Shown: in pieces, positions 359 to 64,000 of the stretch
Layout: the number at the start of each line of letters is the position of its first letter
How positions within the stretch are numbered: the first letter of the stretch is position 1
Source: Candidatus Aenigmatarchaeota archaeon
Lineage (GTDB): Archaea; Aenigmatarchaeota; Aenigmatarchaeia; CG10238-14; SCSR01
Length of the DNA: 64,000 nucleotides
Assembly (NCBI GenBank): GCA_039091335.1
Contig: JAWCME010000002.1
Location: 8,735 to 72,734, forward strand
Direction of reading: 5' to 3'
The notes under the pieces: generated by a model
What the model was told of the DNA's origin: nothing
Database searches by the model: none
What the model saw: the letters and a program-made list of their open reading frames with translations, nothing else
Program-made: the position numbers and the translations under genes

Positions 359-3292
359 GTGATGGACGGATTGTGTGATTTAAAAATTCATAATACTAAT
401 TCTAAAAATAGTTTTATGTTTGAAAAAAACATTAAAAAAGAGGAGGAAATAGCAATTTTTTGGGAAAAGAATAGAATTTATGAAAAAGCTAAAAATTTGA
501 GAAAAAATTCAAAAAAGTTTTTCTTTCTCGACGGCCCGCCATATGCTACTGGTAGCATTCACATAGGTACTGCGATGAATAAAATTTTAAAGGATTTCTA
601 CATTCGTTTTTTCAGAATGCTTGGGTTTAATGTTTGGGATCAACCTGGATACGATTGTCATGGCGTTCCTATAGAAAACAAAGTGGAAAAGAAGCTTGGT
701 TTTAAATCAAAAAAGGATATAGAAAAGTTTGGTGTTGAAAATTTCATAAACGAGTGCAAAAAATTTGCAACAGAGTTTATAGACGTGATGAACAATCAGT
801 TTAAAAATCTTGGAGTATGGATGAACTGGAAAAACCCATATTTGACTTTAAACAACGAATACATAGAGGGAGCATGGTTTACGTTTAAAAAAGCGTTTGA
901 GAACGGTTTCCTTTATAAAGGAAATTATCCTGTTCATGTTTGCCCTCGTTGCGAGACTGCAGTAGCTTACAACGAGATAGAGTATGCTTCTACCGAAGAC
1001 CCAGCAATATACGTTAAATTTAGAATTAAAGACGATCCGAACACATTCTTGGTTTGTTATACAACAACACCATGGACCATTCCTGCAAATACAGGTATAA
1101 TGGCTAAGGGAAGTGCTGAATACGTAAAAATTCAGGTAGAAAATGAATTTCTAATTATAGCAAAAAAACTTTTAGAAGAAGTGATGAAAAAGGCTGGTAT
1201 TAAGAGTTACAAAATAATAGAGACAATAAAAGGAAAGGAATTGGAAGGAATAAGGTATGAATACCCATTTCCGGATATTTTTCAATTCCAAAAAGAACTT
1301 ATTAATGCTCATAGAGTGATTTTATCAGAGCAGTTTGTCAGTTTAGAGGAAGGCACAGGTCTTGTACACACCGCCCCTGGTCACGGACAGGAAGATTATA
1401 ATGTTGGGTTGGAGGCAGGTTTGCCCATTGTCTCTCCTTTAAAGATGGATGGAACCTTTGATGAAAGATGCGGTAAATTTTCTAATATGTATGTAAAGGA
1501 TGCAGATAAATTAATAGTTGAAGAACTAAAGAAGAGGGGATTGCTTCTTCATGAAGAAAAAATTATTCATGAATACCCATTTTGTTGGCGATGTTCTTCA
1601 CCTTTAATTTTGATGGCTGTACCACAATGGTTCTTCAAGATTACTGATATAAGGAAAAAACTATTGCAAGAAAATAGAAAAATAAAATGGGTTCCTGATT
1701 GGGCTGGAGAAAGATTCCAAAATTGGTTGGAGCAGCTTGGTGATTGGCCCATCTCAAGGCAAAGATACTGGGGAATTCCACTTCCAATCTGGATTTGCGA
1801 TAAATGTGAAAATGTTGAAGTAATAGGTTCTAGAAAAGAATTGCCAGTTATTCCTAAAGATTTTCATAAACCGCACATAGATAAAATTGAATGGAAGTGT
1901 AAGAAGTGTGGGGGGAAAATGAGAAGGGTACAAGATGTTTTGGACGTTTGGTTTGATTCGGGGGTTGCGCCATGGGCTTCTCTTGGCTATCCAAAAAAGA
2001 AATTATTATTTAAAAAACTTTGGCCGGTAGACTTTATACTAGAAGGTCCTGACCAAATTCGTGGTTGGTGGAATTCCTTGATGATAACAGGCATGATGAC
2101 TTTTAAAAGAAGACCATTTAATAGTGTTTTGTATCATGGTTTTGTTTTGGATGCTCACGGAGTAAAGATGAGCAAAAGTAAGGGTAATATAGTTGAACCA
2201 CAAGAAGTGATTAATAAGTATGGAAGGGACATACTAAGATTTTTATTCCTTTCTTCCGCTCCTTGGGATGACTACTGGTTTGACTGGAAAAATATAGAAA
2301 AATTGGCAAGGGATTTTGTTATTGTTAGAAACACATTTAACTTTGTTAAAACCTATGTCACGAGCAGGGGAAACGGAAAAGGATTTAAAAAAGAAGATTT
2401 ATGGATACTATCAAGAATAAACAGTCTAATTAAAAATTCTACAGAGTACTGTAAAAACTATCAAGCGCAAAAAGCTGCGCAAGAAATCCTTAATTTTATT
2501 CTTAACGATTTTTCTAGGTGGTATATCAAAATAATTAGAGATAGGGTTTGGATATCCTATCAAGGAAAGGATAAAAAGGCAGCATTCTTTACATTATTTT
2601 ATGTTGCTGAAAATTTAGCAAGACTTCTTTCTCCTTTTGTTCCTTTTTTTGCAGAACAAGTGTTTCAAGATATAATTAAACCAATAAAGAAAAAACCAGA
2701 ATCAATTCATTTATGTGGTTGGCCTAGACCAAACAATAAGCTAATAAACAAAAAAATTGAAGAGCAAATGGATTTGATTAGAGAGATTTTTGAGGCATGT
2801 AGTGAGGCAAGACAAAAAGCAAAAATTAAGCTAAGATGGCCGATAAAGGAGATGATAATAACTTCTAAAGAAAAAAGGGTTTTGGGTGCAGCAAAAAAGT
2901 TTAAAGAAGTTTTATTAAATATTTGCAACGCAAAAACTATTTCTATTACGCCAAAGAAGCCTGTTGGAGAGTTTTCAGAAGCTGCCTTTAGTTTGGGAAA
3001 GGTTTTAGTTTGTAGTAAGATTGATGAAAAACTTTTGGAAGAGGCCTTAATTCGTGAAATTGTAAGAAAGGTGCAAGAGATGAGAAAGAAATACGGTTTT
3101 AAGGTAAGAGAAAGTATATCATTAACTTTAAGTTCTGATGATAGGACGAACAAAATTTTGGAAAAACATAAGAGTAAAATAAAAATGGAAGTTGGTGCAA
3201 AGGAGTTGAGTATAGGAAAGATTAAAGGAGATTATTCCGACTCGATTGAATTCGAAAAACAAGAAATTAAAATTAGTTTTAGCAAGGTTTGA
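359..3292 (+). CDS. ileS: isoleucyl-tRNA synthetase
   Basis: HIGH motif (GSIHIGTAMNK), KMSKS (VKMSKSKGN) and the IleRS-type WPISRQRYWGIPLP motif. A TATA-like TTTATATATAA lies near 325-335, so the true start may be ATG 362 (leaderless). Confidence 0.95.
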   Translation: MMDGLCDLKIHNTNSKNSFMFEKNIKKEEEIAIFWEKNRIYEKAKNLRKNSKKFFFLDGPPYATGSIHIGTAMNKILKDFYIRFFRMLGFNVWDQPGYDCHGVPIENKVEKKLGFKSKKDIEKFGVENFINECKKFATEFIDVMNNQFKNLGVWMNWKNPYLTLNNEYIEGAWFTFKKAFENGFLYKGNYPVHVCPRCETAVAYNEIEYASTEDPAIYVKFRIKDDPNTFLVCYTTTPWTIPANTGIMAKGSAEYVKIQVENEFLIIAKKLLEEVMKKAGIKSYKIIETIKGKELEGIRYEYPFPDIFQFQKELINAHRVILSEQFVSLEEGTGLVHTAPGHGQEDYNVGLEAGLPIVSPLKMDGTFDERCGKFSNMYVKDADKLIVEELKKRGLLLHEEKIIHEYPFCWRCSSPLILMAVPQWFFKITDIRKKLLQENRKIKWVPDWAGERFQNWLEQLGDWPISRQRYWGIPLPIWICDKCENVEVIGSRKELPVIPKDFHKPHIDKIEWKCKKCGGKMRRVQDVLDVWFDSGVAPWASLGYPKKKLLFKKLWPVDFILEGPDQIRGWWNSLMITGMMTFKRRPFNSVLYHGFVLDAHGVKMSKSKGNIVEPQEVINKYGRDILRFLFLSSAPWDDYWFDWKNIEKLARDFVIVRNTFNFVKTYVTSRGNGKGFKKEDLWILSRINSLIKNSTEYCKNYQAQKAAQEILNFILNDFSRWYIKIIRDRVWISYQGKDKKAAFFTLFYVAENLARLLSPFVPFFAEQVFQDIIKPIKKKPESIHLCGWPRPNNKLINKKIEEQMDLIREIFEACSEARQKAKIKLRWPIKEMIITSKEKRVLGAAKKFKEVLLNICNAKTISITPKKPVGEFSEAAFSLGKVLVCSKIDEKLLEEALIREIVRKVQEMRKKYGFKVRESISLTLSSDDRTNKILEKHKSKIKMEVGAKELSIGKIKGDYSDSIEFEKQEIKISFSKV

Positions 3293-3296
3293 GGAC

Positions 3297-3638
3297 ATGA
3301 TAGATTCAAGTGAATTTGGATTTATTGTAGTTGATAGAAAAAAATACAATCACGATGTGATCGTTACTTATAAAGGAAAGGTAAAGAGATGTGAACTTGA
3401 GAAAAGGCATCTTTTCTCGGAAAAAGAGTTTTTGATGCTTTTAAACGAAAACCCGGAAGTTATTGTTATAGGTACCGGTCAGTACGGTGAATGTAAAGTC
3501 TCTGAAAAAATTTTAAAAATGGTTGAAGAAAGGGGAATAAAGATAATTATTAAAGAAACAAAGGAGGCGATCATAGAATTTAATGAATTAATGGAGGCGG
3601 GTAAAAAACCAGTAGCTTATATTCATGTAACATGTTGA
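3297..3638 (+). CDS. Mth938/DUF498-like domain protein
   Basis: Family-like pattern EVIVIGTGQYG...GIKIIIKETKEAIIEFNEL. Start moved to ATG 3297 just after the ileS stop; the track start at 3246 overlaps ileS. Confidence 0.55.
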   Translation: MIDSSEFGFIVVDRKKYNHDVIVTYKGKVKRCELEKRHLFSEKEFLMLLNENPEVIVIGTGQYGECKVSEKILKMVEERGIKIIIKETKEAIIEFNELMEAGKKPVAYIHVTC

Positions 3639-3647
3639 TTTAAAAAT

Positions 3648-4325
3648 TTGTCCATTAATTTTAATATGGCAAAATCAGAGAGAAAAATCGCAGTTGCTGT
3701 TTATTATGGAATAAAGTTGATAGAAAAAAATATAAACGAATTACTGGAAAAATTGAATGTTGATTGTGTTTATCACAATTATGACGAAAATTCCTATGTC
3801 GTTAATTCAAAATATTTCTGGGACATCATAAAAGACGCTAAAAAATCGAAAATAGATAGGATAGTTCTTTGTGGGGGGCATTTTGGTGTTTGTCATTCAT
3901 ACGCATATAGGAAAATTGCTGAGGAAGTTTTGGAAAAGGAAATGGAAATTATTTTGCCACTTGATTGTATATACGATGTTGGAATAAAGTATTTTGGATA
4001 TTCGTCACCAGAAAAGGAAATTGTTTTATCCAGATTAAAAAGCGAAGAAATTATCCAGGAATTTATTGAAAAATATTTGGTACGTAGAATATTACGTAAA
4101 AACATTGTTAGCAGTTTTTATGGTGGTTTGTCAATGTTTACAAGATTTAGCGGGAGTATTAGCAAAAAATTTTCTGAAAAATATGATGAACATTGTTGGC
4201 TATTTCCTTCTAATAGGATTTTTTTCGATGAAGATGAGATTTTAATAGAAGAAGGGAAAAATAATCGGGCATTAATATCTCGCTTGTTTACAACAAACAA
4301 AAAAGTTTTAAAATATTTGCTCTAA
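3648..4325 (+). CDS. hypothetical protein
   Basis: 225-aa ORF in the coding strand context. Only a weak isochorismatase-like hint (IVLCGGHFGVCHSYA). Confidence 0.4.
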   Translation: MSINFNMAKSERKIAVAVYYGIKLIEKNINELLEKLNVDCVYHNYDENSYVVNSKYFWDIIKDAKKSKIDRIVLCGGHFGVCHSYAYRKIAEEVLEKEMEIILPLDCIYDVGIKYFGYSSPEKEIVLSRLKSEEIIQEFIEKYLVRRILRKNIVSSFYGGLSMFTRFSGSISKKFSEKYDEHCWLFPSNRIFFDEDEILIEEGKNNRALISRLFTTNKKVLKYLL

Positions 4326-4709: not shown

Positions 4710-7037
4710 ATGGTTACGAAAAAAGAGTTGATAGAAAAGTTAAACAAGAACCCAGAAAGGTATTGGAAAGTTAAACTCTTCGATGAAGTTGGTTTTAAAA
4801 GGAAGAAATGCATAAATTGCGGGAAGTTCTTTTGGACTTTAACAGAGCAAGAAAAATGTAACGATTCTACTTGTAGACCATATGATTTTATAGGAAACCC
4901 GCCGACAAATAAAAGGCTTGGCTTTTTTGAGACTTGGAATGAAATAGAAAAATTTTTTGTGAAAAGGGGGCATACTTCAATAAAACCATATCCGGTTGTT
5001 TGTAGATGGTTCCCTCTATATTTTACAATAGCGGGGGTTGTGGATTTTTACAGAATAAGTGATGGAAAGCTTGAGTTCGAATTTCCAGCAAATCCTATAA
5101 TTCTGCCGCAAATTTGCCTTCGTTTTAATGATATAGCAAATACAGGAGTAAATGCAAGGTCTTATACTTGTTTTGGTATGATTCAACAAAGCTCTTTGTA
5201 CGACGGAAGAGAAGGTTATTGGAAGGACGAATGCATGGAAATTGATTTTGATTTACTAGTAAAGGTCTTTGGAATAAACCCAGAGGAAATAGTTTTTATA
5301 GAGGATGCTTGGCTCGGGCCTTCTGCCTTTGGAAGTAGTTTGGAATATCATGTTAGGGGATTAGAATTGGGTAATGCTGTGTTTACAGAGTTTTTAGGAA
5401 CTCCTGATAATTATGAGGAAATGAAAGAAAAGGTCATTGATATGGGTGCCGGGTGGGAAAGATTTACATGGATAACACAAGGCACTCCTACAAGCTATGA
5501 TTGTGTTTTTGGTTCTGTGCTAAAAAAATTAAAAAAAGAATGTGATGTGGAATACGATGAAGAATTTTTTCTCAATTATTCAAAATTTTCTGGTGTGTTA
5601 AACTTGGATGAGGTTAAGAGTTTAAAGGAGGAAAGAGTAAGAATTGCAGAAATGCTGAACGTTTCTATAGAAGAATTGGAAAAAAAAGTAGCCACGATGG
5701 AGGCGCTGTATTCAATAGCAGATCATTCCCGTGCCTTAGTTTTTGCAATTTCTGATGGTGGGCTTCCTTCAAACGTTGGAGGAGGTTATAATTTAAGAGT
5801 AATTTTGAGAAGGGCCTTAAATTTTATAAATAAGTTTAAATGGAACATAAAACTACAAGATGTTGCTATTTGGCATATAGATTATCTAAAAAAAATTTTC
5901 CCGGAGTTAAAAAATCAGAAGGAAGAGATTTTAAAAATTCTTGATGTGGAGGAAAAAAGGTATAATCAAGCAAAAGAAAGGAGTAGAAGAATAGTTGAAT
6001 CCTTGTCTGGAAAAAAGATTACAGAAGAAGATTTAATAACACTATACGAGTCTGAGGGAATTACTCCAGACCAATTAGGATTAGAAACACCAAACGATTT
6101 TTATGTTAAAATTACCGAAAGGCATATGAAACCAAAGGAGGAAGAGAGAAAAATAAAGTTAGATGTAAGCAAACTGCCTCCAACAAAAATTCTTTACTAT
6201 GACCAAATTTATGAGTTTGATGCAATGGTTTTGGGAGTTTTTGGGGATTATGTTGTGCTCGACCAGACAGCCTTCTATCCAAGAAGTGGGGGTCAAGAGC
6301 CAGATTCCGGAACTATAAATGGATTTAAGGTTATAGATGTTGAAAAAATTGGCTCGGTCATAATTCATAAGCTTGAAAACCATAATTTAAAAACAAACCA
6401 AAAAGTATCTTGTGTTTTAGATAAAGAGAGAAGAGTTATTCTATCCAAACACCATGTAGCTACTCATCTTATAAATGCTGCTTCAAGAAAGATTCTTGGT
6501 AAACATGTATGGCAGCACTCGGCTTTTAAGGACATAGACGGAGCAAGGCTTGACATAACACACTATGAAAGCTTAACACAAGAGCAAGTCGAGAGAATAG
6601 AGAATCTTGCAAACGATTTTGTTAGAATGGCTTTACCAATTAACACAGAAATATTACCAAGAGGTGAAGCTGAAAAAAAGTATGGTTTTACGATATACCA
6701 GGGAGGTGCTTTCCCAGAGAAAACCCTTAGAATTGTTAAAATTGGAGACGTTGATATAGAAGCGTGTGGTGGAACGCATCATATGCTTGAAAATACAAAA
6801 GATATTGGATGTGTAATAATTCAAAGGACTAAAAGAATACAGGACGGAGTGGTTAGAATAGAGTTTGTTGCAGGAGACGTTGCACTAAAGTATTTGAAAG
6901 AAAAGGAAAAAATATTGATAGACGTGGCGAATTTTTTAAATGTCAAAGAAGAGGACGTTCCAAAAGAAGTAGAAAAAATTTTCAAAAGATGGAAAGAACT
7001 TAGAAAAAATATTAAAAAACTTAAAGTGGTGAAATGA
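4710..7037 (+). CDS. alaS: alanyl-tRNA synthetase, archaeal type, lacking the C-terminal C-Ala domain
   Basis: Archaeal AlaRS N-terminus (CINCGKFFWT). Editing-domain motifs HHVATH (HxxxH) and CGGTHH (CxxxH). Ends about 80 aa after the editing motifs. Confidence 0.93.
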   Translation: MVTKKELIEKLNKNPERYWKVKLFDEVGFKRKKCINCGKFFWTLTEQEKCNDSTCRPYDFIGNPPTNKRLGFFETWNEIEKFFVKRGHTSIKPYPVVCRWFPLYFTIAGVVDFYRISDGKLEFEFPANPIILPQICLRFNDIANTGVNARSYTCFGMIQQSSLYDGREGYWKDECMEIDFDLLVKVFGINPEEIVFIEDAWLGPSAFGSSLEYHVRGLELGNAVFTEFLGTPDNYEEMKEKVIDMGAGWERFTWITQGTPTSYDCVFGSVLKKLKKECDVEYDEEFFLNYSKFSGVLNLDEVKSLKEERVRIAEMLNVSIEELEKKVATMEALYSIADHSRALVFAISDGGLPSNVGGGYNLRVILRRALNFINKFKWNIKLQDVAIWHIDYLKKIFPELKNQKEEILKILDVEEKRYNQAKERSRRIVESLSGKKITEEDLITLYESEGITPDQLGLETPNDFYVKITERHMKPKEEERKIKLDVSKLPPTKILYYDQIYEFDAMVLGVFGDYVVLDQTAFYPRSGGQEPDSGTINGFKVIDVEKIGSVIIHKLENHNLKTNQKVSCVLDKERRVILSKHHVATHLINAASRKILGKHVWQHSAFKDIDGARLDITHYESLTQEQVERIENLANDFVRMALPINTEILPRGEAEKKYGFTIYQGGAFPEKTLRIVKIGDVDIEACGGTHHMLENTKDIGCVIIQRTKRIQDGVVRIEFVAGDVALKYLKEKEKILIDVANFLNVKEEDVPKEVEKIFKRWKELRKNIKKLKVVK

Positions 7038-15934: not shown

Positions 15935-16024
15935 GCCCCCGTAGCTCAACTTGGATAGAGCAGTGGCCTTCTAAGCCATTGGTTGCGGGTTCAAAAGCTT
16001 AGACTGAAATTCCCGTCGGGGGCA
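15935..16024 (+). tRNA. tRNA-Arg(UCU) with a 15-nt intron in the T-loop
   Basis: Hand-folded cloverleaf. Acceptor GCCCCCG/CGGGGGC, D arm GCTC/GAGC, anticodon arm GTGGC-CTTCTAA-GCCAT, T stem GCGGG/CCCGT. The T-loop is 22 nt instead of 7. Confidence 0.9.
15996..16010 (+). other. BHB intron at tRNA position 59/60
   Basis: The T stem forms the outer helix. Central helix TTCA(15990-93)/TGAA(16005-08), bulges AAA(15994-96) and ATT(16009-11). Excision leaves TTCAAAT. Confidence 0.8.
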
Positions 16025-23066: not shown

Positions 23067-23127
23067 ATTACAAATAAAAATTTCATCTTTATTTTTATTT
23101 ATTAGAAAATATTTGAAGGGGTGATGA

Positions 23128-24373
23128 AAAGTAACAAAAGAGATTAATCCAAAGCTAATACCTAAATGTAACATAGGTATGGTCGGACATTGCTAAAGCA
23201 ACCGAAAACGTTGCGCATGGAAAGACAAGCCTAGTTGAAACAATTACTGGAAAGTCAACACTAATGCATTCTGAAGAATTGAAAAGGGGAATTACAATTC
23301 GCTTGGGTTATGCGGATGCAAAAATTTACAAATGTATAAAATGTGGAAAATATTGTTCAAGCGAAAAATGTCCTTTCTGTTTTTCTGATTGTGAGCTTCA
23401 AAGAACAGTAAGTTTTGTGGACGCCCCTGGACATGAAACTTTAATGGCCACAGTTTTAACTGGTGCTGCATTAATGAATGGGGCGATTCTTGTGATTGCA
23501 GCAAACGAGAAGTGTCCTCAGCCGCAGACTCGTGAGCATCTTACTGCTTTGGAAGTCGTTGGAATTAAAAATGTGATAATAGTTCAAAGCAAGATAGATT
23601 TGGTTACAGAAGAAAGGGCATTGGATAGCTATAAAGAAATAAAAGAATTCATTAAAGGAAGTAGCATAGAGAATTCCCCAATAATACCGGTTTCCTCTAA
23701 ACAGAGAATAAACATAAGTTCAGTTATAGAGGCAATAGAGGAATTCATTCCAGACCCGGAATTAGATGAGAAAAAAGAACTGAGAATGCTTGTTGCAAGA
23801 AGCTTTGACATAAATAAACCTGGTACAAGCCCGGAAAAGCTTGTTGGTGGGGTTTTGGGTGGAGCAATAATTCAGGGAAAATTAAGAGTTGGGGAGGAAA
23901 TTGAAATTAGACCAGGTGTAATGGTCGGCTCAAAAAGAATTCCGCTTTTTACTCATGTTTTAGGGATTAAAAAATCGAATATAGAAATGGAAGAGGCTGG
24001 TCCAGGAGGTTTGCTTGGGGTATTAACTGGCTTAGACCCATTTTTAACTAAGTCTGATTCTCTTGTGGGAAGTGTGGTTGGTCTTCCAGGAAAAATTCCA
24101 GAAACAAGAGAGGAGTTAAGAATAAATGTTAATTTACTTGAGAGAGCAGTTGGTTCAAAGGATTTGAGCGCAATATCTCCAATTAAAATAGGAGAAGAGC
24201 TTATGATAAACGTAGGAACAGCACGATCTATAGGAAAGGTTAGCTCAATTAAAAAAGATTATATTGAATTAAAACTTAAAATACCAGTATGTGCTGAGGA
24301 AAAAGAAAGGATAGCGATTTCTAGGTCAATCCTTGGAAGATGGAGGCTTATTGGTTGGGGTGTAATAAAGTAG
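23128..24373 (+). CDS. eif2g: translation initiation factor aIF2 gamma, interrupted by a 19-nt intron
   Basis: Exon 1 (to 23188) encodes ...KLIPKCNIGMVGH. Exon 2 (from 23208) encodes VAHGKTSLVETITGKSTLMHSEELKRGITIRLGYA..., and the track ORF 23264-24373 is only its distal part. The 5' end has no standard in-frame start codon (see findings). Confidence 0.9.
23189..23207 (+). other. BHB-type intron in the aIF2-gamma pre-mRNA
   Basis: Central helix TCGG(23183-86)/CCGA(23202-05), bulges ACA(23187-89) and AAA(23206-08), inner helix TTGC/GCAA with loop TAAA. Removal restores GHVAHGKT in frame. Confidence 0.75.
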
Positions 24374-61402: not shown

Positions 61403-61738
61403 TCAAATTTTTTCCCTTATTTTTGTTTCTAATTCTTTCAGCTTTTCGTTTGTTTTTGCTTCGCTTTTCTCTAAACTTTTTATTCTTATTTCTATAGATT
61501 CTTTTGCTTCACTAAGCTCCTTTTTAAGTTCTTCAACGGGCTTTTTTATCATTACCTGCCCAGCAATTTTATATGCTTCATTTTCCTTTGTTTTGTTTAA
61601 CTCTTCAAGCGCCCTCTCTATCTCAAAAATTTGCATGTTTAAACTTTCTTTCTGTAGCAGTATTGTTTGAAGTTGCTGTTGATAAGCCTGAAATTGTGTT
61701 ATCATATTTTTTGTTTCTTCAGACATCTCTTCTGGCAA
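61403..61738 (-). CDS. pfdB: prefoldin beta subunit
   Basis: QFQAYQQQLQTILLQKESLNMQIFEIERALEEL coiled-coil pattern. Confidence 0.85.
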   Translation of the reverse strand: MPEEMSEETKNMITQFQAYQQQLQTILLQKESLNMQIFEIERALEELNKTKENEAYKIAGQVMIKKPVEELKKELSEAKESIEIRIKSLEKSEAKTNEKLKELETKIREKI

Positions 61739-61769
61739 AAAATCACCACATATTATTTAATTGTATAAA

Positions 61770-61926
61770 CTATATAGATTCAACCCTTTTTATTACTTCT
61801 GGTCTCGTTTTTGCCAAAATTCTATGGGCCCTGCTTGCTTTAAAGCAAGCAAGTAAACCCGCAATATGGACATCTAATGTTTTCTTCCACATTCACAATT
61901 TTCTTACATTTTACACACTTATACAT
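61770..61926 (-). CDS. rpoP: RNA polymerase subunit P (Rpo12/RpoP), interrupted by a 31-nt intron
   Basis: Exon 1 (61926-61855) encodes MYKCVKCKKIVNVEENIRCPYCGF. Exon 2 (61823-61770) encodes RILAKTRPEVIKRVESI*. Unspliced, the frame stops after CPYCGFTCLL. Lies between rpl37ae and pfdB and is absent from the track. Confidence 0.8.
61824..61854 (-). other. BHB-type intron in the rpoP pre-mRNA
   Basis: On the minus strand: central helix GGGT(61860-57)/GCCC(61829-26), bulges TTA(61856-54) and ATA(61825-23), 9-bp inner helix CTTGCTTGC/GCAAGCAGG with loop TTTAAA. Confidence 0.75.
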
Positions 61927-61927
61927 A

Positions 61928-62146
61928 TCACTCCCCCTTTAAGTAATATGCTGGACCAGCAAACTTTAAACCGCATTTTTTACATTTCCATATTCCACAA
62001 GCAACCCTTTTAACATATGGTAAATTACACTTTGGACAAACATATCTTTTTCTTTCCTCCTTTTCAATCTTAGACACAGTTAGTCTAATCTTCCTTCCGT
62101 ATCTTGTCCCAAACCTTCCTGCTGAGCCAACCTTTTTCTTAGCCAT
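61928..62146 (-). CDS. rpl37ae: ribosomal protein L37ae
   Basis: [11 protein letters not shown]...CPKC...CKKC zinc ribbon. Confidence 0.92.
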
Positions 62147-62407
62147 TTATTTCACTATTCTGAATTCTTTTTTCCCCTTTATGTTTTCCAGTATCTTTAT
62201 TAACATCCCTTCCGTTATTTCGTTTTTTATTTTTCCTGTTTGAAAAAGCTGGATTAGATACAACTCCACTTGTGCGGCAAGTTCTGGTTTTACCATCCTA
62301 ACTCTACCGAGCCTTTCTAATGCTTCCTTTGAAAGTATTTTTTTCATCAAAATTCTTTTTAGTTCTTCAATTTTTTTCATCTCCTCTATGCTGATTTCTT
62401 CGTTCAC
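62147..62407 (-). CDS. PDCD5-like DNA-binding protein
   Basis: ILSKEALERLGRVRMVKPELAAQVE pattern. Confidence 0.75.
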   Translation of the reverse strand: MNEEISIEEMKKIEELKRILMKKILSKEALERLGRVRMVKPELAAQVELYLIQLFQTGKIKNEITEGMLIKILENIKGKKEFRIVK

Positions 62408-62820
62408 TCCTTGCTCACCTCAAACGCTATTCTGTCTAGAAGTTTTTTCCCCTTGTTTGTTATTACTCTTCCCCCCCTTTCTTTTTTCAAAAGTCCAGCC
62501 CTTTCAAGCTGTTGTAAGATCTTTCTTATTATATTTCCAGAGGCTTTTCTAAACTGTGGTGGGCGATGCCCCCTCCTTTTTCTCCCCCCGTAATATGTTC
62601 TTAATCTTTCAACGCCGACTGGACCATCAATATAAATTCTTCTGAGAATGGATGCCGCTCTAATATACCAAAAGTCTTTTTGAAATGGAGGTCTTTCTTT
62701 ATGAGATCCTGACTTTACGAAATTTGCCCAGTGAGGCGTAGATATTTCTTTAAAAAGTTTAAGTTCCTCCTTTAACTTATTCACGAGTTTATGTGGGTTT
62801 ACTTCCCTTGCTGTTACCAT
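62404..62820 (-). CDS. rps19e: ribosomal protein S19e
   Basis: VTAREVNPHKLVNKLKEELK...YIRAASILRRIY pattern. Confidence 0.92.
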   Translation of the reverse strand: MVTAREVNPHKLVNKLKEELKLFKEISTPHWANFVKSGSHKERPPFQKDFWYIRAASILRRIYIDGPVGVERLRTYYGGRKRRGHRPPQFRKASGNIIRKILQQLERAGLLKKERGGRVITNKGKKLLDRIAFEVSKE

Positions 62821-62859
62821 AAAATATAAATTTAAATTTTATTTATTAAAGGGTTTGTG

Positions 62860-63096
62860 TTAGGCAGAGAGCATTATATAACTTGTCAAGCATATTATTA
62901 TTATAAAACCACTTAGGATAAGAAGCACAATCAGCATAGAAAAACTAAAAGAATTGAATTTTTTACACGTTTCTGGAGGGTTATTGCCCTTACATACTTC
63001 TGAAAATTTTACTATGTTGTCGAAAACAAAAAATAGCATGATTGTAGCGATGAAGACTGTTAATAGTCCAAAACCAACATGGGAAAAAGCCTTCAT
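62860..63096 (-). CDS. hypothetical small membrane protein
   Basis: 78 aa with two TM helices. Overlaps the rnp4 stop by 4 nt. Confidence 0.3.
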   Translation of the reverse strand: MKAFSHVGFGLLTVFIATIMLFFVFDNIVKFSEVCKGNNPPETCKKFNSFSFSMLIVLLILSGFIIIICLTSYIMLSA

Positions 63097-63392
63097 TTTT
63101 TCACCAAATATCTATAAATTTTTTTACAGTTTGAACACTTAACTGTAACGTATCCATTCTCAATTCTAATTGTTGAAGATATTCCTGGAATTAGAAAACT
63201 ATTGCATTCTTTACAAAATTTTCTCTTTAATTCTTTCTTTAATCTTACATTGTACCTTAGTCCAATTTTTCTTGCAAGTTCTACGTATCTTCTACTCCTT
63301 TCAGGATGTTTTTTTAATTCTTTCTCTGCAAGGTTGAACAATATTTCAATTCTTTCTTTAGCTATTTTTTTTGTCCAGGCAGCTTTTTTCAT
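63093..63392 (-). CDS. rnp4: RNase P protein component Rpr2/Rpp21 (Rnp4)
   Basis: ERIEILFNLAEK...RRYVELARKIG...CKEC...CSNC zinc ribbon. Confidence 0.8.
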   Translation of the reverse strand: MKKAAWTKKIAKERIEILFNLAEKELKKHPERSRRYVELARKIGLRYNVRLKKELKRKFCKECNSFLIPGISSTIRIENGYVTVKCSNCKKIYRYLVKK

Positions 63393-63472
63393 CTAATAAT
63401 AAATTGTTTTAAAATAAATTGAGTAAAGAATAAAAATGGGTCCGACCGGATTCGAACCGGTGACCTCCGCCG

Positions 63473-63484
63473 TTCTGATACATT
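63473..63484 (-). other. tRNA-Val intron 2 (canonical position 37/38)
   Basis: The 12 nt AATGTATCAGAA. Central helix CTGA/TCAG, bulges CGA and AAC. The anticodon stem forms the outer helix. Confidence 0.7.
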
Positions 63485-63492
63485 CGTCAGGG

Positions 63493-63505
63493 TTCCGCTC
63501 TCTCT
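63493..63505 (-). other. tRNA-Val intron 1 (position 29/30), relaxed BHB
   Basis: The 13 nt AGAGAGAGCGGAA. Central helix ACGT/GCGG has 3 pairs plus an A-G mismatch. Bulges CGA and AAC; 4-bp outer helix TAGG/CCTG. Confidence 0.55.
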
Positions 63506-63540
63506 CGACGTCCTACCACTAGACCACGGACCCAACTTTA

Positions 63541-64000
63541 TCATATTTTGTAAAGGTAAACATAAAAATGTTCGGTCCTTATTTTTTTTACTTCTTTCCA
63601 CTCACTTAAAACATGGTCTGCAGAAATTATTCTTGTCCCCTTTCTAAGTTCTTTTTCTAGTTTTGGTTTAATTTCGTCGTTCAGTCTTTGCGATAGATAT
63701 AATGTTACTATAGTAGCATTACTTAAGTTTTCTTTAAAAAAATCATTTTCTATTAATTCAACCCTATCTTCAACTCTGTTTCTTTTAATATTCCATCTAC
63801 ATATTAAACAAAGAATTTTATTTTTTTCTATACCCACAGCCTTTATTCCATATTCTTTTGCAGCAGTTATTATTACTCTGCCAGTACCACATCCCAAATC
63901 ATAAAGTATATCATCCTTTTTAATTTCTGCTAACTCTAACATTTTCCTTATAGTTTTTTTTGATAATGGAACGAATATGGCTTCCCCTCTTACTAACTTT
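63541..64000 (-). CDS. class I SAM-dependent methyltransferase, N-terminus cut by window edge
   Basis: DILYDLGCGTGRVI motif I. The frame stays open upstream of the track Met (…KLVRGEAIFVPLSKKTIRKMLELAE) to position 64000. Confidence 0.75.
   Translation of the reverse strand, partial: KLVRGEAIFVPLSKKTIRKMLELAEIKKDDILYDLGCGTGRVIITAAKEYGIKAVGIEKNKILCLICRWNIKRNRVEDRVELIENDFFKENLSNATIVTLYLSQRLNDEIKPKLEKELRKGTRIISADHVLSEWKEVKKIRTEHFYVYLYKI

Follow-up and report, generated by a model that had tools for sequence, protein, structure and literature searches.

We analysed a 64,000-nt stretch of DNA (64 kb, G+C 33.5%; hereafter the window) from an Aenigmatarchaeota-like DPANN archaeon. On its minus strand, the gene for the RNA polymerase subunit RpoP lies between rpl37ae and pfdB and is split by a 31-nt insert. 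The upstream neighbour rpl37ae (61928..62146, minus strand) encodes ribosomal protein L37ae in a 72-aa open reading frame (ORF), whose identical gene call in a Logan assembly matches Pfam PF01780; the downstream neighbour pfdB (61403..61738, minus strand) encodes prefoldin beta (TIGR02338, 79.4 bits, above the cut-off). The ATG of rpoP stands at 61926, one base beyond the end of the L37ae gene, and 4 nt 5' of it we read a GGGGGAG (61931..61937, minus strand) that resembles a Shine-Dalgarno sequence and presumably acts as one. Exon 1 (61855..61926, minus strand, 72 nt) encodes MYKCVKCKKIVNVEENIRCPYCGF with a CxxC...CxxC zinc ribbon, followed by the insert ACUUGCUUGCUUUAAAGCAAGCAGGGCCCAU (61824..61854, minus strand) and by exon 2 (61770..61823, minus strand, 54 nt), which encodes RILAKTRPEVIKRVESI and a stop in a shifted frame. 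Without excision, the exon-1 frame adds TCLL and ends after 28 codons at a TAA within the insert (61840..61842, minus strand), so that the locus holds a 28-aa ORF at 61840..61926. Removal of 61854-61824 joins TTT to AGA in frame and yields a 41-aa protein with the predicted junction TGCGGGTTT/AGAATTTTGG. An earlier note on this DNA had described the two exons, the TCLL and stop, the shift after 31 nt and the excision that joins TTT to AGA, and the sequence bears out each of these points. We conclude that rpoP very probably carries a 31-nt archaeal-type bulge-helix-bulge (BHB) intron.

The predicted joined 41-aa protein is full-length RpoP (archaeal Rpo12; RPABC4 family), the smallest RNA polymerase subunit. 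It has a basic tail behind the zinc ribbon and matched PF03604, the Pfam family of the 7-kDa RNA polymerase subunit zinc ribbon, with 27.8 bits against a gathering score of 24, over profile positions 1-32 of 32. With the NCBIfam RpoP model NF001606 it scored 60.6 bits (E 9e-17) and covered positions 3-42 of 44. The separate halves covered positions 3-31 (exon 1 alone) and 27-42 (the exon-2 ORF) of the latter model. The end-to-end matches agree with the complete 41-aa RpoP that the earlier note had proposed. The score of 60.6 bits lies below the NCBIfam equivalog cut-off of 72, and the cut-offs of the PRK00398 models span 63-103 bits. Uninterrupted orthologues in relatives scored 53-54 bits, likewise under the NCBIfam cut-off, and the spliced products of the window and of three intron-bearing relatives described below scored 54-61. 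Since intact orthologues also fall short, the shortfall reflects the clade rather than the splice and is no argument against membership in RpoP.

The gene had been called invisible to ORF calling, which holds: no gene was called at this locus in any of the four intron-bearing lineages. At this position, the ORF list of the window contains only the 28-aa ORF, one of 40 aa that is out of register and a spurious one of 146 aa on the opposite strand. Window positions 61607-63916 recur with 100% identity in an independent Logan assembly (L001, run SRR27730043), whose gene calls also lack rpoP. The spurious ORF (61573-62013, plus strand) runs antisense to rpoP, rpl37ae and pfdB, and 134 of its residues are called as a gene in the public Logan annotation (L001 1904-2308), where they replace the missed rpoP.

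In the sense of the transcript, the borders of the insert pair into a central helix between GGGU (61857..61860, minus strand), an exonic strand made up of a Gly codon and the first base of a Phe codon, and the intronic GCCC (61826..61829, minus strand). The helix has four base pairs (three G-C and one U.G), is present in the minimum-energy fold and is kept in the four lineages. Two 3-nt bulges would flank it. The 5' bulge UUA (61854..61856, minus strand) is unpaired in the minimum-energy fold, with a predicted cut after its second nucleotide, between 61855 and 61854. The 3' bulge AUA (61823..61825, minus strand), with a predicted cut after its second nucleotide between 61824 and 61823, would exist only if the single outer C-G pair forms and is loosely defined because the outer helix is weak: in the 3' strand of that helix, GAA (61820..61822, minus strand), G61822 can pair with C61861, the next position is a G.A mismatch and a U-A pair comes third. 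The inner helix CTTGCTTGC/GCAAGCAGG comprises 9 bp including one U.G; the minimum-energy fold lengthens it to a 10-bp hairpin, including one U.G, with the loop UUAA (61830..61853, minus strand), which alone has −13.4 kcal/mol. The minimum-energy fold of 61805-61880 reaches −22.6 kcal/mol (z = −3.0; 0/200 shuffles as good) and holds the central helix, the 5' bulge and the hairpin. A search of the window with Rfam at the gathering threshold returned one tRNA only and no known RNA family for the element. All helix, bulge and loop coordinates of the earlier note proved correct, as did its remark that the outer helix is weak beyond the C-G pair. Shifting the cuts by −1 or +1 yields an identical mRNA because of T/T and A/A repeats at the borders, and a shift of −2 would yield CGY-RIL. 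DNA alone does not fix the cut register to the base.

We then compared the locus with those of relatives, using rpl37ae as the synteny anchor. The first two scans comprised 26 loci, 9 of them species-representative and 17 from metagenomes. Uninterrupted rpoP stood directly 3' of rpl37ae at 8 of the 9 and at all 17 loci, usually with pfdB next; at the remaining locus, L010, no rpoP lay downstream of rpl37ae. No insert-bearing relative was present among these 26 loci. The insert-bearing lineages came to light only when the contigs of the closest L37ae homologues were examined, which added three of them along with five intron-free lineages. In total, about 30 syntenic relatives, the nearest being Candidatus Aenigmatarchaeota, have an intact rpoP, and a continuous CG[YFS][RK]I aligns with the proposed junction, as in L002 (...CPYCGYRIFVKIRPEVIKRVRAR).

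The insert-bearing lineages are L028 (L37ae identity 81%, insert of 33 nt), L029-L034 (76%, 30 nt; six assemblies, one of them an 880-kb contig, Ga0453288_0014) and L043 (69%, 33 nt). With the window, they make up four lineages from at least nine samples or assemblies, in which the inserts share one phase-0 codon boundary and each contain stop codons. Both rpoP exons are intact in all four and the spliced products match RpoP models end to end; in L029 the predicted junction is TGCGGATAT/AGAATTTTTG. In most pairs of intron-bearing lineages, synonymous codon differences in exon 2 outnumber non-synonymous ones, for example 9 versus 3 of 18 codons. The inserts follow a common layout, which reads TGC, GG[GA]U, [UA]U-A, a hairpin of 23-26 nt, G[CU]C[CUA], A[UGA]-A and GAAU. 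The 5' bulge has 3 nt in all four lineages, with A as its third base throughout, and the 3' bulge position reads AGA, AAA and AGA in the relatives. The outer C-G pair is invariant; it belongs to coding sequence and is hence little informative. The hairpin sequences differ, and so does the effect on the frame: the 30- and 33-nt inserts are in frame yet contain stops, whereas the 31 nt of the window shift the frame. Given these lengths and stops, only RNA excision explains all four lineages. Excision at the RNA level, as predicted here, alone rescues them all, and no single translational trick does.

The pairing itself is also conserved through sequence change. In an alignment of the four lineages (A1), 89.3% of the cells were paired compared with 72.3% in column shuffles (0/500 reached this value), and slid partners gave 29-50%. 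The covariation score was 0.667 versus 0.307 in shuffles (0/500), with slid controls at 0.07-0.18. Both sides had changed in 8 of 14 pairs, and in 7 of the 9 counted pairs of the inner hairpin among the four lineages. The central helix occurs as GGGU/GCCC, GGGU/GCCU, GGAU/GUCC and GGAU/GUCA. Its position 3 covaries, being G-C in the window and L043 and A-U in L028 and L029; here a G or A at the third, synonymous base of the Gly codon is matched by C or U on the intronic strand. Comparative support for the predicted rpoP intron is unusually strong for a prediction from sequence; the spliced product, synteny, conservation and covariation all support the BHB interpretation first put forward in the earlier note. 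A rough neighbour-joining tree of S19e, L37ae and PfdB, built without support values, placed the window, L029 and L043 in one subclade, interleaved with the intron-free L002 and L035. This pattern suggests a single gain of the putative intron and precise losses, as has been proposed for cbf5 (PMC2738675).

As the best explanation, we propose the following course of events. The rpoP gene would be transcribed together with rpl37ae, and in the transcript the GGGU at the end of exon 1 would pair with the intronic GCCC to form a 4-bp helix with two flanking 3-nt bulges, stacked on the 10-bp hairpin. The tRNA-splicing endonuclease (EndA) would cut each bulge after its second nucleotide, and an RtcB-type ligase would join the exons. 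Spliced mRNA would then give the complete 41-aa zinc-ribbon subunit, while unspliced RNA would give a 28-aa peptide that stops inside the intron. We infer the cleavage, the ligation, the enzymes involved and the exact cut positions from the DNA and its comparison. Applied in silico, the same cutting rule restores RpoP in the window, L028, L029 and L043, as well as aIF2-gamma, PsmA and two tRNAs encoded in the window.

Several findings weigh against an rpoP intron of this kind. The bare geometry (a helix of 4 bp with 3-nt bulges, stacked on a hairpin of 4 bp or more) is common by chance: a scan found 442 sites in the window versus about 514 in shuffled sequence, and sites with an inner stem of at least 9 bp numbered 3 in the window versus 2.8 expected. 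G.U-rich A/T hairpins are frequent at this G+C content. The minimum-energy fold lacks the 3' bulge AUA and uses an alternative local pairing there, and the outer helix amounts to a single C-G pair, short of the strict hBHBh' form. The rpoP element is a relaxed BHB motif (the HBh' form as in PMC5829648), for which an endonuclease of broad specificity would be needed. The central helix of L028 ends in a G.A mismatch at its outermost position, and the covariation comes from four sequences, from one of which the structure was derived. The exact spliced proteins were absent from a collection of 15 billion proteins, and no assembled spliced transcript is known. The parts of the window that we examined contained neither endA nor rtcB (no RtcB motif, and no EndA among 10 mid-sized ORFs), and the search for another rpoP covered 64 kb of the genome. 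A search of the window with Rfam at the gathering threshold returned one tRNA only and no known RNA family for the element.

We rejected the geometry by itself as evidence, since shuffled sequences equal the window and only criteria set after the elements had been seen separate the real from the shuffled. These tightened criteria allowed no more than one G.U in the hairpin, which also had to contain three or more G-C pairs, and required two or more G-C pairs in the central helix; under them, two sites remained in the window versus 0.03 per shuffle. These are the sites at rpoP and in front of psmA, and both sit exactly at a gene interruption. The rpoP element exceeds chance through its exact frame-restoring position and its conservation in relatives.

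Other explanations of the split gene were weighed against the same data. One of them keeps the excision and gives it a role: splicing would be inefficient or conditional, making the intron a control point for the supply of RpoP or the stability of the rpl37ae-rpoP-pfdB transcript rather than a neutral passenger. The poorly defined 3' splice site, with its weak outer helix and alternative pairing, would fit such a role, as would the retention of the intron in four lineages while it was lost or never present in sister lineages, and the BHB intron in the 5' untranslated region (UTR) of a Haloferax gene alters expression of that gene (PMC7714728). We consider this unlikely, as the sequence carries no sign of a sensor or regulator binding site and the hairpin sequences drift freely, as expected for a purely structural requirement. 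That the interrupted rpoP is a pseudogene, disabled by a small hairpin element while a functional copy lies elsewhere, might be thought from the absence of a gene call at the locus and from the 64 kb over which the genome was inspected. We judge it very improbable. The insert occupies the same codon boundary in four lineages that have diverged to 69-81% identity in L37ae, and these have kept the exons, the start codon and the ribosome-binding site, with synonymous changes in excess of non-synonymous ones and helices maintained by compensatory changes. Relatives retain rpoP at exactly this locus. A search of all six frames of the 64-kb window for a second RpoP-like zinc ribbon (CxxC...C[PS]xCG) found none, and allowing as many as 6 mismatches brought up no further copy of the insert.

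A ribosome that skips the insert, whether by translational bypassing, frameshifting or stop-codon readthrough, is less probable again, and we rejected these routes because insert lengths and stops are inconsistent among the lineages. Lengths of 30, 31, 33 and 33 nt demand three different recoding events: one lineage would have to shift frame and the others to read through between one and three stops. Such readthrough would bring 10-11 foreign residues into a 42-aa protein. A stable hairpin with a stop right after the take-off region does superficially resemble the translational bypassing gap of T4 gene 60. There are, however, no matching take-off and landing codons; a tRNA-Phe landing on the TTT in AATTTTGG would be in the wrong frame, with the conserved RI lost, and what is conserved is the helix-bulge geometry, including the covarying exon-intron pair. 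Least probable of all, to the point of being negligible, is that the insert arose as an artefact of assembly or sequencing. At the aIF2-gamma start (23124-23130), what looks like a 1-nt homopolymer discrepancy indicates that the sequence may not be error-free, but the independent Logan assembly is identical at rpoP, homologous inserts occur in at least eight other assemblies from different samples, and a perfect 31-nt hairpin is untypical as an error.

The predicted rpoP intron most closely resembles the introns in cbf5 pre-mRNAs of Crenarchaeota (PMC2738675; Watanabe 2002, Yoshinari 2006, Yokobori 2009). Both are short BHB-type introns within a gene for an information-processing protein, with an often relaxed motif, a presumed dependence on a broad-specificity splicing endonuclease and a patchy distribution read as gain and loss. 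They differ in the host gene, rpoP (41-42 codons) being far smaller, and in lineage, DPANN/Aenigmatarchaeota compared with Desulfurococcales/Sulfolobales. Moreover, cbf5 splicing has been shown experimentally whereas that of rpoP is predicted, and at least two more candidate mRNA introns lie within the same 64 kb here. A second comparison is offered by the Haloferax volcanii HVO_1309 mRNA, which carries a BHB intron in its 5' UTR, demonstrated both in vivo and in vitro (Schwarz 2020, PMC7714728). It too makes an mRNA, rather than a tRNA or rRNA, a substrate of the tRNA-splicing endonuclease; in contrast to the rpoP intron, it is euryarchaeal and lies in an untranslated leader, and its removal rebuilds no reading frame. 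Non-canonical tRNA introns with relaxed motifs (HBh', BHL) are known from Crenarchaeota, ARMAN and other DPANN (PMC5829648; Marck & Grosjean 2003; Fujishima 2011), and endonucleases with extra loops tolerate a weak outer helix (PMC5829648). The rpoP intron shares their geometry and cutting rule, and the tRNA-Arg and tRNA-Val of the window are of this type. In rpoP, by contrast, the host RNA is an mRNA with no mature tRNA body to aid recognition, and codons limit how the exonic half of the motif can vary.

In HAC1/XBP1 splicing, Ire1 and a tRNA ligase or RtcB remove a short mRNA intron without a spliceosome and change the downstream frame. The predicted rpoP splicing would share the removal of a short mRNA intron by an endonuclease and a ligase, the independence from a spliceosome and the frame change. 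HAC1/XBP1 differs from the rpoP element in its use of Ire1, in having two stem-loops instead of a BHB and in its regulation by stress, and there is no evolutionary link. A role of RtcB in splicing of the HAC1/XBP1 type is mentioned in PMC8718801.

The archaeal mRNA BHB introns known so far, as stated in 2020, are those of crenarchaeal cbf5 and the one in the Haloferax 5' UTR (PMC7714728), and a paper from 2025 (PMC12397907) still cites nothing beyond the cbf5 work. In the literature outside subscription journals, we found no report of BHB introns in DPANN, Aenigmatarchaeota, rpoP or other protein genes. These sources support the view that rpoP is a new host gene, and Aenigmatarchaeota a new phylum, for what appears to be a pre-mRNA BHB intron of the cbf5 type. 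For more than 20 years, crenarchaeal cbf5 has been the sole archaeal protein gene in which a BHB intron was known to interrupt the reading frame; introns in rpoP, aIF2-gamma and psmA would turn a single curiosity into a recurring feature of a DPANN lineage. The finding ties the spread of mRNA introns to broad-specificity endonucleases and makes one ask how a cell that has no nucleus reconciles splicing with coupled transcription-translation. It also bears on annotation: automatic annotations of these genomes miss RpoP and truncate aIF2-gamma, which distorts estimates of completeness as well as statements that DPANN archaea lack core genes.

Two further protein genes of the window appear to be interrupted in the same way. 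In the aIF2-gamma gene (23161-24373, plus strand), the ORF at 23264-24373 spans only profile positions 37-411 of 412, and the frame upstream of it encodes ...NIGMVGH. Between them lies an element (23183-23208) with the helix UCGG/CCGA, the bulges ACA and AAA and a 4-bp hairpin, UUGC-UAAA-GCAA. Taking out the putative 19-nt intron (23189-23207, plus strand) gives NIGMVGH/VAHGKTSLVE and restores the P-loop, as in intact homologues, which read NIGM[LV]GHVAHGKT[ST]L. The earlier note had held the rpoP geometry to be identical to that of aIF2-gamma, and the same cutting rule indeed applies to this 19-nt element. In the relative L045 this site holds a version of 21 nt whose hairpin shows a compensatory change. 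At 23121-23136 (plus strand), exon 1 of aIF2-gamma has no in-frame start codon: a ribosome-binding site and the ATG at 23124 stand one base out (ATG AAAA GTA...). With AAA, the start would read MKVTKEINPKLIP, which resembles the MEKLVKINPKLIP of homologues. This mismatch (23124-23130) may be either a homopolymer assembly error or a real frameshift.

The psmA gene, which encodes the proteasome alpha subunit and extends to 55000 on the minus strand, contains a candidate 32-nt intron (55712-55681) with a perfect 11-bp hairpin and a 4-bp outer helix, a strict BHB. Its 27-nt exon 1 (55739-55713) consists of nine codons, MPPQILPEY, behind a good ribosome-binding site, and excision joins MGYDRT... 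in frame. Automatic gene calls let PsmA begin at this internal MGYDRT. The same arrangement is found in L044, which reads MVEILPEY/MGYDRT with an insert of 32 nt and changed hairpin bases.

For two tRNA genes, too, a perfect cloverleaf results only once introns are cut out by the same rule. The tRNA-Arg(UCT) gene (15935-16024, plus strand) has a 15-nt intron in the T-loop (15996-16010) with the helix UUCA/UGAA. It is unannotated, having been missed by ARAGORN and scored by Rfam with 28.6 bits against a threshold of 29, and its excised form is a perfect cloverleaf of 75 nt. The sequence at 63437-63533 (minus strand) is best explained as tRNA-Val(GAC) with two introns, one of 13 nt at position 29/30 (63505-63493) whose helix has 3 bp and an A.G mismatch, and one of 12 nt at 37/38 (63484-63473) with the helix CUGA/UCAG. 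ARAGORN reported it as Pro(cgg) or Leu(cag), depending on the mode. Neither an alignment with the syntenic tRNA-Pro of relatives nor brute-force trials of single deletions made sense of the sequence, which was solved by applying the BHB rule with two introns. Together with the protein genes, these tRNAs imply that the organism has an endonuclease able to handle short, relaxed motifs at non-canonical sites. Over-long tRNA genes also occur in relatives, namely tRNA-Pro genes of 90 and 94 nt (L002 1319-1408 and 1510-1603) and a tRNA-Trp gene of 86 nt (L044 8751-8836). They probably contain introns as well, which fits an intron-rich clade.

With three conserved putative BHB introns in essential genes and three more in two tRNAs within 64 kb, splicing of mRNA by endonuclease and ligase might be a routine step of gene expression in this Aenigmatarchaeota clade. 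We put this forward tentatively, rating its chance somewhat below even. If it is true, the density scales to dozens of introns per genome of about 1 Mb. The clade would then be the first prokaryotic lineage with a population of tRNA-type introns in protein genes, and the affected genes would be systematically missed or truncated by gene callers. We also scanned 20 further large ORFs of the window; the 14 that match a family profile appear uninterrupted, so that interruption affects a minority of genes. The one incomplete match is that of the alanyl-tRNA synthetase (AlaRS) ORF (4710-7037, plus strand), which covers profile positions 4-785 of 902 (TIGR03683) and lacks the C-terminal part. In the intron-free relative L038, an IS605-family OrfB/TnpB-like gene (2586-3773; Pfam OrfB_IS605, Cas12f1-like_TNB) lies between rpoP and pfdB.

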